Positions 5,134 to 20,345 of a stretch of 42,586 nucleotides of DNA are shown here, one piece after another. Position numbers and translations under genes: made by a program. The notes beneath the pieces are model-generated. The model saw only the letters and a list, made by a program, of their open reading frames with translations, was not told where the DNA came from and ran no database searches. The stretch covers positions 1-42,586 of the forward strand of contig JAGVYZ010000019.1 in assembly GCA_018303025.1 (NCBI GenBank). Reading direction: 5' to 3'. Numbering within the stretch: the stretch's first letter is position 1; each line of letters starts with the position of its first letter. This DNA comes from Candidatus Woesearchaeota archaeon (lineage in GTDB: Archaea > Nanobdellota > Nanobdellia > SCGC-AAA011-G17 > GW2011-AR20).

Positions 5134-8100
5134 TTATTTCTTTAAATTAATCTTAGCAAGAACTAATTGATGCATGTTTCTTAAGAATTTCATTCTGTCT
5201 TCAAATTTTAGGATATCTGTATAACCTTGTAAGACTAAATTAAATGCAAATGGAGAAGGTATTTGAGTCTGAACTTCTTTTATTTCTATTTTTCCTTTTT
5301 CAATTTCTTCTATTATTAATTTTAGATTCTGGATATCCATTAGGTCTTCTAAGACTTCTCTTTTTGCTTCTTTTAAGATTGGAAAATCTTCTGAGATTCT
5401 TCTTATTGCTGAGATTAATAACATTGAAGAAACCTGCTGTCTTCCTACTCGCTTTTTCTTTCCTTTATATTCTTTTAATATCATTAATGAGCGAACAGCA
5501 CAATGGCGAAAACGTCTCTTTAGGATTTCTGATTTTTCAATTGCTTTGTTTAAGACTTCATTTATTTCTTTGCTTTTTATTGCTTTTAATGCTTCTATTA
5601 TATTTATTTTTGATTCTGCATTTATATAGAAACCATTATCACTTATTCCCATTTCAATGTCTTTATGATAAATTCTTGAAACAGCAAAAGCTAATGCTCT
5701 TGAGAAGCAGTCATTTACTCTTCTTCCATATAATGAATGGACAATAATCTTTTTTTCATCTTCATTATTATTGTAATGCTCAATAATTATTTTAGTATTA
5801 CTTGGAACTTCATTGCAAAATAAATATTGTTCTCTAAAGTAACTATAAACTGCTTCTCCTGCATTTTTATCAACGTAAAGATATTCGTTTATGAATTTTA
5901 AGATGTCTTCCTTGCTTCTTTTTGCATTAAATTTTCCTTCCATTAATTTCCTGAATCTACCTATTTCTAATGCTAAATCAAAAGATAATGGAAGCATTTC
6001 TGAAAACCAGGAAGGAACTGTTGGAGGTCTGTCAACTGAAACTACAACTTGAGCTGTCTGACCTTTTGCGTATCTATAAATATAAGTTTGCCCGCCTAAA
6101 ACAAAAACATCACCTGGTTTTAGTCTTTCTAGGAAAGATTCATCTATTGTTCCTATAACTTGTTCTCCTAATTTAACTAAAATATTTGATTCATCTGGAA
6201 TTGTTCCAATATTAGTCATGTAAATAACTCTGGTCATTTTACCCTTTCTTCCTAGCATTTTTGTTTCAGGGTCAAACCAGACTTTTGCATAAACATTCCT
6301 GTCTTCTAATGTTGTGTATTCACCTGTTAGATAGTTTATTACATCCATGAAATCTTTTTTTTCTAATGTTTTGTAGCAATAACATCTTTTGATTAAGGCA
6401 AATAAATTATCTATGTTTATTCTATCTATACAAGTAATGCCTACTATTTGCTGGGCTAGAACATCTAGACAATTTCTTGGAATATGAATCCTATCTATTT
6501 TTCTATCTAAACTAGATTTTAAGATTACTGAACATTCGATTAAATCATCTCTGTCTAAAACAATTATTCTTCCTTTTGCTGTTTCATGAAGTTTATGGCC
6601 GGCCCGACCGCAATTATGAGTTAAAATACTCTCAACAAAAAATGAATTTGGTTCTTCTTTGAGAGTAATATTGTAAACATATCCCTCTTCTTTTATATAA
6701 TTTATAGACTCTATTTTTGTCCAAGATAAATTAAGGTCTATGTCTTTGTCATTTTTTAAATAAGCAGGAATTATTTTACTTAAAAAAATTGATTTTTTGC
6801 CCTTTAAAGTACAATTGTTTACAAAATTTAATATATGTTTTTGCCTACTAATATAAATACAGTAAATGGTATCATAATTTATTTTTTGGATTAATTTAGA
6901 TATTTTAGCTCTTTGTTCATTAAAATAATTGTGTATTCCAACTCGGTTTAATAAATTATGCAAACCCATAGCAAATTTTTTACTTGATGTAAATATTCTT
7001 ATACTATTAGAATTAACACTACCATCACCTTCAATTACACCTTCTATAAATGGAATTATTAATTCTTTAGGTAATTTATAGAGATTATTTGAGATTTCTA
7101 CTTCATGACTTTTATTTTTAGTTTTTATACCAAAAGAGAGCATTATTTCAGCTAAAAGTTTTGAACCGCAATCTAAGGTCATAAAATTATCTTTTGTTGT
7201 TAATATTTTTGGATAAAAACCAAATTTATTTAAGATTTTTTGGCATTCTTCTAATAATTTTTTATCTTTATTACCTATCTTTATTTTTAATTCTCCTGTT
7301 TTCTTATTTTTTGTTATTGAACCATCTGTAGCAACTACTCCTGTCAACCACATGAAATCTTTATCAACTTTTAATGAAATAGGAACTCTATGATGAGATT
7401 TACTTTTTAATTCAGACAAATAAGTCAAGTAATTTATTTTATTAATTTTACAAATTTCCATAATTTTTAGAAATAGGTCTAGTCTGATGCTCTTTCTTCT
7501 TCCATTTTTTCTCATATAATTTTGAAGATGGTTTTCTCTTATACCTATATTTTTAGCTAAATTCGTATATGTAATATTACTTGATTTAACATGCTGGTCT
7601 ACTACATTTCTTAGAAAGTCTTGCTTATTTTCAACATAAAATCCTTTTTGATTAATAACTTCATAAATATATGGTGTTTGATCTATAGAAAGATCAAATA
7701 TTTCGGCTACTTCTTCATCCTCTTCAAGCTCTGAAGTTTTTTTCCATCCTTCTTTGGTAAATAAAGGATGCTCTTCAGTGCATCTTATTTTAGATCCAGA
7801 ATGTAATTTTATTTCTATTAGTTCTTTATTATTATTTTTGTGATATTCTGCTATTTTGTTTTTTATAAAACCTTTTTCTTTATCAAAAGATAATATCTCA
7901 ATATCTAACTTATTTTCAACTATTTCTCCAATTTCTTTATAAGTGCCGTCTGATAATAATAATTTAGATTCATAAGGCAGGCATCTTTGTAAGGCCCTTG
8001 AAGCTGATTTTGGAGAACCTAATAAAATTACTAAATCAATGTAACCTATATCTATACCTAATTCTAAGGATGTTGAGGTTACAACTACTTTTAATTCACC

Positions 8101-9105
8101 TTTTCTTAATCTTTCTTCTAGGTTTAATCTTAATTCTTTTGATAATGAACCATGATGAGCTCCTATGTTTTCTGTGTATTTTTTTGGATATTTTTCTTTT
8201 AAGTGATGAACTACTCGCTCTGTTGCTGCTCTTGTATTGGTAAATATTAATGTTGTTTTATGGTCCTGGATTAATGAATCTATTAAAGTGTATAATTTTG
8301 AATGCATGTCATCATAAGAAATATTGATTAAATCATCTACTGGACACATTACTTTTAAGTCCATTTTTTTTAAAAACTGGACATCTATTATTTTACAGTC
8401 ATCTTCTCCTACTAAGAACTTAGCTATTTCATCTAAAGGTGAAATAGTAGCTGATAAACCAATTGTGACTGGCTTGTTATTTGCAAAATATCTTAATCTT
8501 TCTATGCTTAGATTTAAATGAACTCCTCTTTTGTTTTCTGCTAATGCATGAACTTCATCTACTATTAGATATTTTACATCTTTTAGCAATTCTCTGAATT
8601 TAATTGAAGTTATTGCTATTGCAAAGCTTTCTGGTGTACAGATTAAAATATGAGGAGCGTGCTTTAACATTTGTGATTTTTCAGAAGCTGTTGTATCTGA
8701 TGTTCTTACACCTACTTTTATGTTTAATTTTTGCTTTGAAATTGCTTCTATTTCTTTTAATGGCTGAATTAAATTTATGCTAATATCATTTGATAATGCT
8801 TTTAATGGTGAAATGTAAATACAATATACTTTGTTTTCTAAAAAATTACCTTGAGATAGATTTGTTAATTCATTTAAGATTGAAAGAAAAGCTGTTAATG
8901 TTTTACCTGAACCTGTAGGAGAACTAACTAGAACATTTTTTTGATTATGAATTAAAGGGATAGCGTATTTCTGAGGTTCTGAAAAGTTCTTGAATTTTTT
9001 AGTAAACCATTCTTTTATAGTTGGGTTTAGTATTTTGAATATTTCTTCTTCTTTGAATGGTTTTTCTTGGTAGGTTATCATTTGTAAGGGTTTAACACCC
9101 TTCAC
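5134..9105 (-). CDS. lhr: Lhr-type ATP-dependent helicase (superfamily 2) carrying an intein
   Basis: Motifs present: Walker A SSPTGSGKT, DEVH box, SAT, and motif VI split as ALQR / CGRAGH. A long C-terminal Lhr-type domain follows. The protein is 866 aa once the intein is removed. The track start is a GTG; the ATG at 9081 (MITYQEKPF) is more likely. Confidence 0.9.
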   Translation of the reverse strand: MKGVKPLQMITYQEKPFKEEEIFKILNPTIKEWFTKKFKNFSEPQKYAIPLIHNQKNVLVSSPTGSGKTLTAFLSILNELTNLSQGNFLENKVYCIYISPLKALSNDISINLIQPLKEIEAISKQKLNIKVGVRTSDTTASEKSQMLKHAPHILICTPESFAIAITSIKFRELLKDVKYLIVDEVHALAENKRGVHLNLSIERLRYFANNKPVTIGLSATISPLDEIAKFLVGEDDCKIIDVQFLKKMDLKVMCPVDDLINISYDDMHSKLYTLIDSLIQDHKTTLIFTNTRAATERVVHHLKEKYPKKYTENIGAHHGSLSKELRLNLEERLRKGELKVVVTSTSLELGIDIGYIDLVILLGSPKSASRALQRCLPYESKLLLSDGTYKEIGEIVENKLDIEILSFDKEKGFIKNKIAEYHKNNNKELIEIKLHSGSKIRCTEEHPLFTKEGWKKTSELEEDEEVAEIFDLSIDQTPYIYEVINQKGFYVENKQDFLRNVVDQHVKSSNITYTNLAKNIGIRENHLQNYMRKNGRRKSIRLDLFLKIMEICKINKINYLTYLSELKSKSHHRVPISLKVDKDFMWLTGVVATDGSITKNKKTGELKIKIGNKDKKLLEECQKILNKFGFYPKILTTKDNFMTLDCGSKLLAEIMLSFGIKTKNKSHEVEISNNLYKLPKELIIPFIEGVIEGDGSVNSNSIRIFTSSKKFAMGLHNLLNRVGIHNYFNEQRAKISKLIQKINYDTIYCIYISRQKHILNFVNNCTLKGKKSIFLSKIIPAYLKNDKDIDLNLSWTKIESINYIKEEGYVYNITLKEEPNSFFVESILTHNCGRAGHKLHETAKGRIIVLDRDDLIECSVILKSSLDRKIDRIHIPRNCLDVLAQQIVGITCIDRINIDNLFALIKRCYCYKTLEKKDFMDVINYLTGEYTTLEDRNVYAKVWFDPETKMLGRKGKMTRVIYMTNIGTIPDESNILVKLGEQVIGTIDESFLERLKPGDVFVLGGQTYIYRYAKGQTAQVVVSVDRPPTVPSWFSEMLPLSFDLALEIGRFRKLMEGKFNAKRSKEDILKFINEYLYVDKNAGEAVYSYFREQYLFCNEVPSNTKIIIEHYNNNEDEKKIIVHSLYGRRVNDCFSRALAFAVSRIYHKDIEMGISDNGFYINAESKINIIEALKAIKSKEINEVLNKAIEKSEILKRRFRHCAVRSLMILKEYKGKKKRVGRQQVSSMLLISAIRRISEDFPILKEAKREVLEDLMDIQNLKLIIEEIEKGKIEIKEVQTQIPSPFAFNLVLQGYTDILKFEDRMKFLRNMHQLVLAKINLKK
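6613..7983 (-). mobile_element. 457-aa intein with LAGLIDADG homing endonuclease, inserted in helicase motif VI
   Basis: It begins at Cys (CLPYESKLLLSDG, codon 7981-7983) and ends THN (Asn 6613-6615), followed by the +1 Cys of CGRAGH. Block B is CTEEHP. LAGLIDADG motifs are LTGVVATDGSI and IEGVIEGDGSV. Excision restores QRCGRAGH. Confidence 0.9.
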
Positions 9106-9133
9106 GAACCCGTAAAAAATTTTTACGAACCTG
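9084..9133 (+). repeat. copy of the 5' part of tRNA-Trp intron 1
   Basis: gtaagggtttaacacccttcacgaacccgt (9084-9113) is identical to 20047-20076, and acgaacctg recurs at 9125-9133 and 20079-20087. The segment contains the hairpin AAGGGT-ttaac-ACCCTT. Confidence 0.85.
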
Positions 9134-9389: not shown

Positions 9390-10613
9390 ATGAATCGGGA
9401 AATACATATAACTGATTTAATCCCATTTTTGAAAAATAGTCACGTTAAATTAGAATTAACTTTCTTGAAATGTTTATTGATTGATGCTTCTAAGACAGAG
9501 TTACCCCACTATAATCTTGATTTTTGTAATTATCTGGGTTGTAAAATCAATAAGAATAATAAAAAATCTTCAAATATTTATCAATGGTTAAAAGGAGAAA
9601 GAACTATTCCTTTTAAGAAATTGATAAAAATTGTTTCTTTAGCTAAAAATTATAAGTGGGATGATGTTGAAAAAAATTTAATTTCTATTAAATCAGGTAT
9701 TAAAAAAGGCGAAATATATCCCAAATTTCCATTTTATTTAGACGAAAAATTTGGATGTATAATCGGGCATATTCTGGGCGATGGTTCGATTTCAAGAACA
9801 TATGAAATTTCTTTTAATAATACTAATTCTGATTTATTAAAAGAATTTATTAATAATATGTATTTAATTTTTGGAATTTATCCAAGAATCTGGATAAAAA
9901 GGTGTAGTATAAACTTTACTGAAAAACATAAATGGGAAAAGAGAATTTATGACTTGGACAATATTCCTAAACATTATATGGCATCTTTATTTTATCCTGC
10001 AATTTGTGGAAAATTTTTACTTGGAATTTATGGCAATTTTGCTTATAGTAAATATAAAAAAATTACTAAACGAATATTTAACAGTAATAGCGAGTTTAAA
10101 CGAAGTTTAATTAGATCTTTTTATGATGATGAATCATCAGTTAATGAAAAACAGAAATTTATTCGTATTTTTCAAGATAATAAAAAACTATTATCAGACA
10201 TTAAAAAAATCTTGACAGATTTAAATATTTGTTCTAATGAAGTTAGATACTATATTAAACAAAATAAAAAAAGATATTATTTTAATATTTCAGGATATTT
10301 TATTCTTTTAGACTATTTTAACAAAATTGGATTTACTTCAAAATCAAAATCTATAAACTTAATTAGATTATTAAACAAAATATCTTCTAAACAACATTTT
10401 AGATTAAGAGTTGGTGAAATGAAAAATGTAATAATGCAATTTTTAAATACTGGACCTAAAGATACTATGTTTCTTATTTTACAATTAAGAAAGAAATATA
10501 CGTTTATGCGTTTAAATGAAGAAACTGTTAGAAAACATTTGCATAACTTACAAGATAAAGGAAAAATAGTTTCCCAAATGCAAGGTCATATTTATATCTG
10601 GAAAATTAGATAA
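9390..10613 (+). CDS. free-standing LAGLIDADG-family protein with flanking HTH-like regions
   Basis: Two LAGLIDADG motifs are present (IIGHILGDGSI and LIRSFYDDESSV). There are no Hint splicing blocks: no N-terminal Cys/Ser block and no terminal HN. The C-terminal VRKHLHNLQDKGKIV looks like a winged helix. Confidence 0.75.
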   Translation: MNREIHITDLIPFLKNSHVKLELTFLKCLLIDASKTELPHYNLDFCNYLGCKINKNNKKSSNIYQWLKGERTIPFKKLIKIVSLAKNYKWDDVEKNLISIKSGIKKGEIYPKFPFYLDEKFGCIIGHILGDGSISRTYEISFNNTNSDLLKEFINNMYLIFGIYPRIWIKRCSINFTEKHKWEKRIYDLDNIPKHYMASLFYPAICGKFLLGIYGNFAYSKYKKITKRIFNSNSEFKRSLIRSFYDDESSVNEKQKFIRIFQDNKKLLSDIKKILTDLNICSNEVRYYIKQNKKRYYFNISGYFILLDYFNKIGFTSKSKSINLIRLLNKISSKQHFRLRVGEMKNVIMQFLNTGPKDTMFLILQLRKKYTFMRLNEETVRKHLHNLQDKGKIVSQMQGHIYIWKIR

Positions 10614-19286: not shown

Positions 19287-19963
19287 AAACTTTAGTTTTT
19301 GATACAGGAAGCATTATTTCTATTATGACTAATAATCTTATGGATGTTTTGATTAAACTAAAGGAAGAGAGCCAGGTTGATTTTATTGTGACTAATGAAG
19401 TTAAAAAAGAATTATTGGATATTCCCATACAAGGCAAAAGATTCAAATTAGAAGCAATTATGCTTGATTTTTATCTGAAAAAATATTTTAAAACACAGAC
19501 AAACATGAATTTTAACAATTTAATTAATTCTGTTCTTAGTTTGTGCAATACTCTTTTTAGTGTTAATGGGCAATATTTAAAATTAGTTGACAGGGCTGAA
19601 GTTGAAGCTTTAGTTATTGCTAGTTCAATGAGAGCAGATGCTTATGTTGTTGATGAAAGAACAATGAGGCTATTAGTTGAAAATCCAATGAAATTGCATG
19701 AATTATTTGAAAGAAAATTGCATACTAAAATTCAGATTAATAATCGGAATTTACGCGAGTTAATTGACAAATTTTCAGGAATGACTATATTAAGAAGCTG
19801 TGATTTAATGACTATTGCTTATGAAAAACAATTGTTTGTTAAGTATGATTTTCATGAAGAATTATTAGATGCACTTTTATGGGGATTGAAATTAAGAGGG
19901 TGTTCTGTTTCTGAACAAGAGATTGATGAGATTATTAAAATTGAAATAAACAAATCTGCATAA
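19283..19963 (+). CDS. PIN-like domain protein (putative toxin/nuclease)
   Basis: N-terminal LVFDTGSII, then spaced acidic residues (TNEVKKEL, VDRAEVEAL, YVVDERT), consistent with a PIN fold. Translationally coupled to the upstream HTH gene. Confidence 0.5.
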   Translation: MKTLVFDTGSIISIMTNNLMDVLIKLKEESQVDFIVTNEVKKELLDIPIQGKRFKLEAIMLDFYLKKYFKTQTNMNFNNLINSVLSLCNTLFSVNGQYLKLVDRAEVEALVIASSMRADAYVVDERTMRLLVENPMKLHELFERKLHTKIQINNRNLRELIDKFSGMTILRSCDLMTIAYEKQLFVKYDFHEELLDALLWGLKLRGCSVSEQEIDEIIKIEINKSA

Positions 19964-19972
19964 AAGAAAAGG

Positions 19973-19980
19973 TTTATAAT
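19973..19980 (+). promoter_or_regulatory. TATA-box-like element (TTTATAAT) with a purine-rich BRE-like stretch upstream of tRNA-Trp
   Basis: It lies 26-33 nt upstream of tRNA position 1 (20006) and is preceded by gaaaagg. This matches the usual archaeal promoter geometry. Confidence 0.4.
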
Positions 19981-20005
19981 TCTCGAATTAAATCATTTTT
20001 TTATT

Positions 20006-20215
20006 GGGGATATAGCACAACCCGGTTAATGCGGTCGGCTCCAGAAGTAAGGGTTTAACACCCTTCACGAACCCGTGAACGAACCTGTTAAAAACAGATT
20101 CATTGATGAAACCGATTGATTCAGGTTCAAATGAAGCTTTTCTTCGCGAAGAAAACCTTCAGGAAAAGAAGGCGAGATGAAGAAAACAAAAGCTCTGAAA
20201 GTCCTGATATCCCCA
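20006..20215 (+). tRNA. tRNA-Trp: tRNA-Trp (anticodon CCA) with two introns (about 20045-20110 and about 20132-20201)
   Basis: Exons 20006-20044, 20111-20132 and 20203-20215 assemble into a 74-nt cloverleaf. Acceptor GGGGATA/TATCCCC; D arm GCAC/ATGC; anticodon stem GTCGG/CCGAT; loop CTCCAGA; T arm TCAGG-TTCAAAT-CCTGA; discriminator A. No CCA is encoded. Confidence 0.8.
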
Positions 20216-20345
20216 GTACTTTTTCTTTTTGAAAAAGAAAACCTACGCTAAAAGAAAACATCTTGGAAAAAACCTACGCTAAAAGAAACATTTAGCAAGA
20301 AAAATCTTATGAGCAAAAAGAAAAAATTAAAGCGAAACGTTTAAA
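20216..20345. repeat. purine-rich repeat leader (AAAGAAAAC units; 21-nt direct repeat AACCTACGCTAAAAGAAA(A)CA x2)
   Basis: The direct repeats lie at 20240-20260 and 20271-20290. aaaagaaaacatcttggaaaaa (20250-20271) closely matches 27422-27444 upstream of the 853-aa surface-protein gene. Confidence 0.7.

Follow-up and report, generated by a model that had tools for sequence, protein, structure and literature searches.

How can a tRNA gene serve the cell when its sequence is broken twice, once in the anticodon loop and once in the T loop? This question is raised by positions 20006-20215 of a contig assigned to a Candidatus Woesearchaeota archaeon, a small archaeon from groundwater (assembly GCA_018303025.1, JAGVYZ010000019.1), of which we analysed a stretch of 42,586 nt, called the window here. 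Run on the raw 42.6-kb sequence, neither ARAGORN nor Rfam at its gathering threshold reports a tRNA, which is to be expected when an insert lies elsewhere than in the anticodon loop.

A tRNA-Trp(CCA) gene in three exons

Joining 20006-20044, 20111-20131 and 20202-20215 of the plus strand gives a tRNA-Trp(CCA) of 74 nt. The features of the locus are as follows.

19973..19979, plus strand: TATA-like box TTTATAA, 27-33 nt 5' of tRNA position 1, a putative assignment by sequence reading
20006..20044, plus strand: exon 1, tRNA positions 1-37 (acceptor 5' strand, D arm, anticodon stem 5' strand, loop CTCCAG)
20045..20110, plus strand: intron 1, 66 nt at 37/38; A20045 equals A20111, and the cut can be written one base rightward
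20047..20098, plus strand: repeat GTAAGGG-loop-CCCTTCAYGAACC followed by the CTGnTAAAAnCAG hairpin, which fills most of intron 1
20111..20131, plus strand: exon 2, positions 38-59 (A38, anticodon stem 3' strand, variable loop, T stem 5' strand, T loop TTCAAA)
20132..20201, plus strand: intron 2, 70 nt, in the T loop at 59/60; T20132 equals T20202, hence 60/61 is equivalent
20133..20161, plus strand: hairpin repeat GAAGC-TTTTCTT..AAGAAAA-CTTCR at the 5' end of intron 2
20202..20215, plus strand: exon 3, positions 60-73 (T60, T stem 3' strand, acceptor 3' strand, discriminator A)
20220..20230, plus strand: T-rich run TTTTTCTTTTT, a likely terminator judging from its sequence

The acceptor stem pairs GGGGATA (20006-20012) with TATCCCC (20208-20214), followed by the discriminator A20215; CCA is not encoded at the 3' end. 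The anticodon stem is formed by GTCGG (20034-20038) and CCGAT (20112-20116) around the loop CTCCAG...A, and the T stem by TCAGG (20121-20125) and CCTGA (20203-20207). The spacing of the TATA-like box is that of archaeal promoters, and the trailer that holds the T-rich run is common to other T-loop-intron tRNA genes of the genome. A 20-nt direct repeat, AAAACCTACGCTAAAAGAAA, is present in two copies just 3' of the gene (20238-20257 and 20269-20288); this unit and the trailer GTACTTTTTCTTT also lie 3' of other tRNA genes with T-loop introns (contigs C4, C28 and C50).

With the T-loop insert taken out, ARAGORN recognises a tRNA-Trp(cca) whose 66-nt intron lies at 37/38, and all coordinates hold for the three exons that a sequence-only reading of this DNA had assembled into a normal 74-nt cloverleaf. 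Gap-free alignments of the spliced 74-mer with intronless tRNA-Trp genes from relatives show 65/74, 62/74 and 57/74 identical positions, and the junctions of the 74-mer, CTCCAG/ACCGAT and GGTTCAAA/TCCTG, are identical to those of the intronless orthologues. G37 of exon 1 agrees with the CTCCAGA loop of these orthologues, whose junctions fix G37 and A38 and so settle the one-base ambiguity of intron 1, which the sequence-only reading had placed at 37/38 with an ambiguous A. The orthologue junctions also agree with 20132-20201 as the second intron, previously described as about 70 nt long and near 59/60.

Acceptor pairs 5-7 and T-stem pair 49:65 have changed on both sides relative to the orthologues, so exon 3 has stayed matched to exons 1 and 2. 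Judged from these paired changes, the gene is under selection as a single tRNA. Its cloverleaf, its anticodon CCA, its discriminator A and its 65/74 identity to an intronless orthologue place it among tRNA-Trp genes. It had been presumed to be the only one, and no second tRNA-Trp was found in the assembly, which is 87.5% complete, a level at which the missing part could contain another tRNA-Trp or another endonuclease subunit.

The T-loop intron has a strict bulge-helix-bulge motif

The junctions of intron 2 had been read as a textbook bulge-helix-bulge (BHB), and geometry, folding energy and covariation among 14 paralogous introns bear this out. The central helix consists of TTCA (20126-20129) and TGAA (20196-20199), with four of four Watson-Crick pairs, and is flanked on opposite strands by the bulges AAT (20130-20132) and AGT (20200-20202). 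The outer helix is the 5-bp T stem. The inner helix has 8 bp, made up of G20133:C20195 and of AGCTTTT (20135-20141) paired with AAAAGCT (20188-20194), with A20134 bulged. Two 3-nt bulges, a 4-bp helix, both flanking helices and compensating changes are thus all present, which is the composition of the strict motif (hBHBh').

Cleavage after the second bulge base is the register of canonical archaeal introns, and this register is borne out by the Trp introns of relatives (GGAG facing CTCC) and by the genome's own tRNA-Gly(GCC) intron. Cleavage of this kind places intron 2 at 59/60 and would leave TTCAAAT, the regenerated 7-nt T loop that the sequence-only reading had predicted. The 59/60 site may be regarded as the structural twin of 37/38, as the T arm and the anticodon arm both comprise a 5-bp stem and a 7-nt loop.

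The pairing also stands up to thermodynamic folding: for an 87-nt T-arm substrate, the BHB fold has a free energy of -18.5 kcal/mol versus -18.8 kcal/mol for the minimum free energy (MFE) structure, 0.3 kcal/mol above it. An unconstrained fold of the whole precursor forms neither intron's central helix. The nearest-neighbour model penalises two 3-nt bulges, and the missing 4-bp helix of intron 2 in that fold is therefore unsurprising.

A sub-threshold Rfam match to the box C/D RNA sR17 lies within 20173-20202 of the plus strand, in intron 2 (15.3 bits, with a cutoff of 36). The matching string is GAGATGA, 14 nt and CTGA; the CTGA is not kept in the paralogous introns, and the match is probably due to chance. 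No Rfam family scores above threshold at the locus, and a scan by E-value gave chance-level matches only.

The same T-loop insert occurs in at least 14 tRNA genes

The genome comprises 1.06 Mb at 29% G+C, and a standard search detects 15-16 tRNAs in it. A scan for hidden tRNAs, which looks for acceptor and T-stem pairing with any spacing between them, shows that at least 14 tRNA genes carry an insert of 43-92 nt at the identical T-loop site. Among the tRNAs concerned are Leu(CAG), Leu(UAG), Gly(CCC), Gly(UCC), Gly(GCC), Lys(UUU) and Glu(UUC), and removal of the T-loop insert alone is enough for ARAGORN to recognise 12 of the 14 genes.

When the 14 T arms are aligned, the BHB structure leaves 94.7% of cells paired, versus 81.8% after shuffling. 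The covariation score is 0.411, compared with 0.143 for the shuffled alignments, and is reached by none of 500 shuffles, a count that is not a probability, the arms being non-independent paralogues. In slid controls, with partners moved by one to three columns, pairing is at most 60%. Position 57 pairs with the intron as A:U in seven arms and as G:C in five, and is unpaired in two.

The introns themselves are alike. A core of six T-loop introns shows 85-94% mutual identity across isotypes (Leu, Ala-like and others), and intron 2 of tRNA-Trp is 73-76% identical to this core, with shuffled copies reaching at most 59%. Similar introns across isotypes, together with tRNA-Trp genes free of a T-loop intron in 14 relatives, are the marks of a transposed-intron family.

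Several other tRNA genes of the genome are of interest in their own right. A 252-nt gene on contig C52 (19985-20236, plus strand) apparently has three inserts, in the D loop, the anticodon region and the T loop, and ARAGORN cannot call it even without the T-loop insert. ARAGORN reads contig C3 3225-3391 (minus strand) as tRNA-Ala with anticodon AGC once its T-loop intron is removed; this anticodon is unusual for archaea, and there may be an error in where the intron was placed or in the isotype assigned. On contig C8 (13264-13359, minus strand), a tRNA-Arg(UCG) gene shares about 93% identity with tRNA-Trp in the D arm and anticodon stem. Its 22-nt intron splits the anticodon between 35 and 36 and has a strict BHB, the helix being 4/4 and the flanks 3/3 and 4/4. 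We had considered this gene as a Trp-like paralogue with anticodon UCA that would read UGG and UGA, and rejected the idea, given that BHB splicing yields the anticodon UCG and hence Arg. A lenient enumeration of BHB motifs was unsuitable for counting introns across the genome, as false solutions were too numerous.

The anticodon-loop intron has a relaxed motif

The sequence-only reading had doubted that intron 1 forms a canonical BHB, and the doubt was justified. In the canonical register, CTCC (20039-42) faces GATG (20105-08), giving C:G, U.U, C.A and C:G, so that two of four positions, the C:G pairs at the ends, are paired in place of the 4-bp central helix of a canonical 37/38 motif. The rest of the architecture is retained. 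The intron sits at 37/38, its bulges are AGA (20043-45) and AAA (20109-11), the outer helix is the anticodon stem with five of five pairs, and the inner helix, which includes AGT (20046-48) and ATT (20102-04), has four of five. This register ranks 17th of 15931 and has the best score among those that leave a 7-nt loop. Cuts placed one base to the left or right were rejected, as judged by hand, for breaking the outer helix.

Folding is less favourable than for the T-loop intron, with -14.4 kcal/mol for the BHB register versus -21.2 kcal/mol for an alternative structure, 6.8 kcal/mol apart. The alternative pairs C35 with G and A36 with U, stacked with tandem G.A pairs; a K-turn on these tandem pairs was considered and rejected, as its C stem is out of register by eye. 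The other checkable 37/38 introns of the genome have at most one mismatch (0-1) in the central helix. The Trp introns of relatives end in GAAG/AAA, with one C34.A mismatch, or in GGAG, with none, in the same register. From these comparisons, the site and 3' end of intron 1 look ancestral, and a further A to T change appears to have weakened the helix here. Intron 1 thus has a relaxed motif that retains the canonical spacing, and of all the steps of splicing, recognition of this intron is the least secure.

A UGAUGA string lies at the 3' end of intron 1 (20104-20109), with no D box downstream. A box C/D guide RNA in either intron was rejected, as no Rfam family reaches threshold and the required D-box arrangement is missing.

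A single endonuclease gene and the proposed processing of the precursor

The inventory of splicing genes is short. The genome has one EndA gene, encoding 176 aa (contig C52, PF02778 and PF01974), with an RNase Z gene adjoining it, and an RtcB gene; no EndA paralogue was found in the genome. The protein aligns without gaps to the α4 EndA of M. jannaschii (1a79) over residues 28-176, with the catalytic Tyr, His and Lys aligned. Its best match is the α subunit of N. equitans, which has a 6-residue insert before the catalytic His that is absent here. By this alignment, the enzyme would be α4-like and without insert loops. Counting this genome and 40 relatives, the search gave exactly one EndA hit in 35 of 41 (two single-contig genomes among them), two in one and none in five.

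Loop-less enzymes cut relaxed motifs poorly, and α4 enzymes in DPANN are associated with disrupted tRNA genes (Kaneta et al., PMC5829648). The strict motif at 59/60 fits a strict enzyme of this kind; the relaxed motif of intron 1 fits less well.

We place the probability at about 85% that the locus encodes a functional tRNA-Trp(CCA), the only one found in the assembly, made from a precursor of about 210 nt by the splicing of two introns. Transcription would yield this precursor with both introns in place. Each would be excised by the α4-like EndA, in whichever order, the exons would be ligated by RtcB, and CCA would be added afterwards. The strict BHB of intron 2 should be acceptable to a strict endonuclease. 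Intron 1 would be an expanded form of the intron of 12-39 nt that relatives carry at 37/38, brought to 66 nt by a hairpin repeat; its central helix would have decayed to two C:G pairs around U.U and C.A, making recognition the weak step.

The locus is not particular to this assembly. Contigs from the runs of other studies cover 19931-20245 (X14) and 20018-20233 (X18) with zero differences, and a diverged strain also has the repeat at the start of intron 1. No joined, spliced form occurs among the contigs of DNA runs aligned to the locus, and a look for RNA runs containing it found none.

Other explanations of the locus

Given the state of intron 1, the gene might be functional while this intron is no standard BHB substrate, and its removal might need a relaxed specificity, not expected of this loop-less α4 enzyme, or a helper, for example a protein that keeps the RNA in the BHB register, or might be slow, in which case the supply of tRNA-Trp would be limiting. 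A central helix with two of four pairs points this way, as do the 6.8 kcal/mol that the BHB register costs relative to the alternative fold, the 0-1 mismatch of the other canonical introns and the lack of any insert in EndA relative to that of M. jannaschii. However, the flanking helices and 3-nt bulges keep the canonical spacing, and relatives in the order that have a single EndA widely keep the C34.A mismatch (GAAG versus CTCC), so imperfect central helices are tolerated in the order. We consider this account unlikely.

One could also imagine that the locus is a pseudogene in decay, a former tRNA-Trp gene into which two mobile repeats have inserted, with the working gene in the unassembled 12.5% of the genome. 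Both inserts are indeed made of genome-wide repeats, the assembly is incomplete and the motif of intron 1 is degraded. Yet all four stems are intact and differ from the orthologues by two-sided changes, the gene still has a TATA-like box and a T-rich terminator, and the T-loop insert retains a strict BHB. The same insert is found in 13 other tRNA genes, with no uninterrupted copy among the matches for the isotypes that ARAGORN can call. No other Trp gene was found in the assembly, and the locus is identical in independent samples. Decay on this scale seems very unlikely to us. Least credible is an assembly artefact, in which shared repeats led the assembler to stitch repeat copies into a tRNA gene: the region is repeat-rich, but single contigs of the other studies span both introns and all three exons without differences. 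A spliced, functional tRNA-Trp gene remains our reading of the locus.

Both introns consist largely of genome-wide repeats

We wondered where the two inserts came from. The repeat in intron 1 has 72 copies in the genome by regular-expression search, mostly at gene edges. One copy lies within the window at 9084-9116 (minus strand, 97% match), and its module is also present in the intron of the tRNA-Gly(GCC) gene on contig C54 (2269-2485). The hairpin repeat of intron 2 has 82 copies, compared with 2 in a shuffled genome; 14 of them directly follow the T-loop sequence GTTCRAWN and 68 lie elsewhere. The copy at 9084-9116 is directly 5' of the ATG of an ORF for a 1323-aa Lhr-like helicase (5134-9105), and a free-standing 407-aa ORF with LAGLIDADG-like text follows at 9390-10613.

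The tRNA-Trp genes of relatives give a baseline for this comparison. Among 60 related genomes searched by BLAST, 14 were found to have a tRNA-Trp(CCA) gene; five of these genes are uninterrupted (73-74 nt), eight have a single intron of 12-39 nt at 37/38 and one has a D-loop intron in addition to one at 37/38. None of the 14 has an insert in the T loop. An intron of 12-13 nt, as in some of these relatives, plus a module of about 54 nt would yield the 66 nt of intron 1.

A strict two-ended pattern for the T-loop intron occurs at 10 sites in this genome, whereas a search of 200 further genomes of the order gave no match. As the pattern was built from the introns found here, the null is a narrow one and says just that this exact intron family was not found in those 200 genomes. 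Scanning GTDB species genomes with the 5' half of the pattern returned mostly chance bacterial matches and a conserved Asgard protein gene, along with real T-loop introns that have the same hairpin start in tRNA-Val(UAC) of Aenigmatarchaeota and in an uncultured archaeon with a 0.9-Mb genome. In the Aenigmatarchaeota genes (contigs L086 and L055), the T-loop intron is about 60 nt long and begins with a GAGGC-hairpin module. The uncultured archaeon has a 291-nt tRNA-Trp(CCA) gene on the minus strand of CAZJKT010000001.1, with a 175-nt intron at 37/38 and a 43-nt T-loop intron built on TTCA/TGAA with bulges AAT and AAT. By eye, the exons of that gene are more diverged from ours than are those of the order-level orthologues. 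As these closer relatives have no T-loop intron, the two-intron tRNA-Trp of both archaea looks, from the sequences, like an independent gain.

In a further survey, Rfam at E <= 1e-5 detected 13-53 tRNAs each in this genome and 30 relatives of the order, with 31 and 33 in the single-contig genomes. Interrupted tRNA genes hidden from such searches may be common across the order.

These observations suggest a tentative account, to which we assign somewhat less than even odds, in which both introns reflect the birth and growth of introns from selfish DNA, with a repeat spread to at least 14 tRNA genes, by a route used repeatedly in DPANN. The GAAGC-hairpin-CTTCR repeat would have landed in a T loop, where the T arm mimics the anticodon arm and a strict BHB would result; a plain α4 endonuclease could then excise the insert at once. 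From there, the insert would have spread to at least 14 tRNA genes of the lineage. The second repeat, that with 72 copies, would have inflated an old 37/38 intron of tRNA-Trp from about 12 to 66 nt. The Aenigmatarchaeota tRNA-Val introns and the second double-intron tRNA-Trp suggest repeated use of the route in DPANN archaea. If true, this would be a visible route by which tRNA introns arrive, a question that a 2026 preprint on Asgard archaea describes as still open (10.64898/2026.10.13.758758).

Comparison with known interrupted tRNAs

Archaeal tRNA introns at 59/60, multiple introns in one gene and similar introns across isotypes are established (PMC4090602, PMC5829648, PMC3239211); the sequence-only reading had mentioned multiple introns and non-canonical ones for some archaea. 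A gene with a canonical and a 59/60 intron is therefore of a known kind, ordinary in some archaea. Multi-intron tRNAs of Thermoproteales and other Crenarchaeota (Marck & Grosjean 2003; Sugahara et al. 2008) are treated in PMC4090602. As in the present gene, those tRNAs have a BHB at the junctions, 59/60 among the listed sites, up to three introns per gene, and canonical and non-canonical introns within one gene. In contrast to the single insert-less α4-like EndA found here, the endonucleases of those lineages are (αβ)2 with a Crenarchaea-specific loop, and many of their motifs are relaxed. The distribution of motifs also differs, being strict at the non-canonical position and relaxed at the canonical one in our gene.

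The transposed tRNA introns of Thermoproteales, known from 2010 work cited in PMC4090602, are very similar across isotypes. Likeness across isotypes, and a Trp T-loop intron that is absent from the orthologues of relatives, are in keeping with that system. Unlike in that system, all copies here are at 59/60, and the 5' module occurs about 68 times outside T loops. To our knowledge, no link between introns and genome-wide repeats has been reported for Thermoproteales.

A T-loop intron at 59/60 in a DPANN archaeon has a precedent in pre-tRNA-Cys(GCA) of ARMAN-2 (Micrarchaeota) (PMC5829648; Fujishima et al. 2011, PMC3239211). That intron has a relaxed motif (hBH) and is cut by an ε2 enzyme with a specific loop, with α'2 and loop-less enzymes failing in vitro, whereas the present one combines a strict hBHBh' motif with an α4-like enzyme. 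The canonical intron has a possible counterpart of another sort. It shares the 37/38 site with the tRNA-Trp intron of Haloferax volcanii, and UGAUGA is present in intron 1, but it has no D box in the required arrangement and is not a member of that class. In that class, reportedly described by Clouet d'Orval et al. in 2001, the tRNA-Trp intron carries a box C/D guide RNA, in Haloferax volcanii as in other Euryarchaeota.

Implications

Compared with the sequence-only reading, which concerned a single gene with two introns, the analysis adds a T-loop intron family in at least 14 tRNAs, a largely repetitive make-up of both introns, and an intron 1 site that looks ancestral and is common to relatives. 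What is less usual is the strict motif at a non-canonical site alongside a plain α4-like enzyme, the lineage-limited burst of introns at one position, and the match between introns and repeats.

Non-canonical intron positions are usually linked to endonucleases of broad specificity. A plain α4-like enzyme together with many strict T-loop introns fits the view that it is the motif, and not the position, that limits the enzyme. For genomes of this kind, annotations would miss essential tRNAs, as standard finders report none in the window and about 15 in the genome. The sequence shared between introns and repeats offers a concrete and testable source of new tRNA introns. The cell would presumably need the splicing of this tRNA: if tRNA-Trp is truly single-copy, it relies on the splicing of two introns, of which one has a degraded motif.
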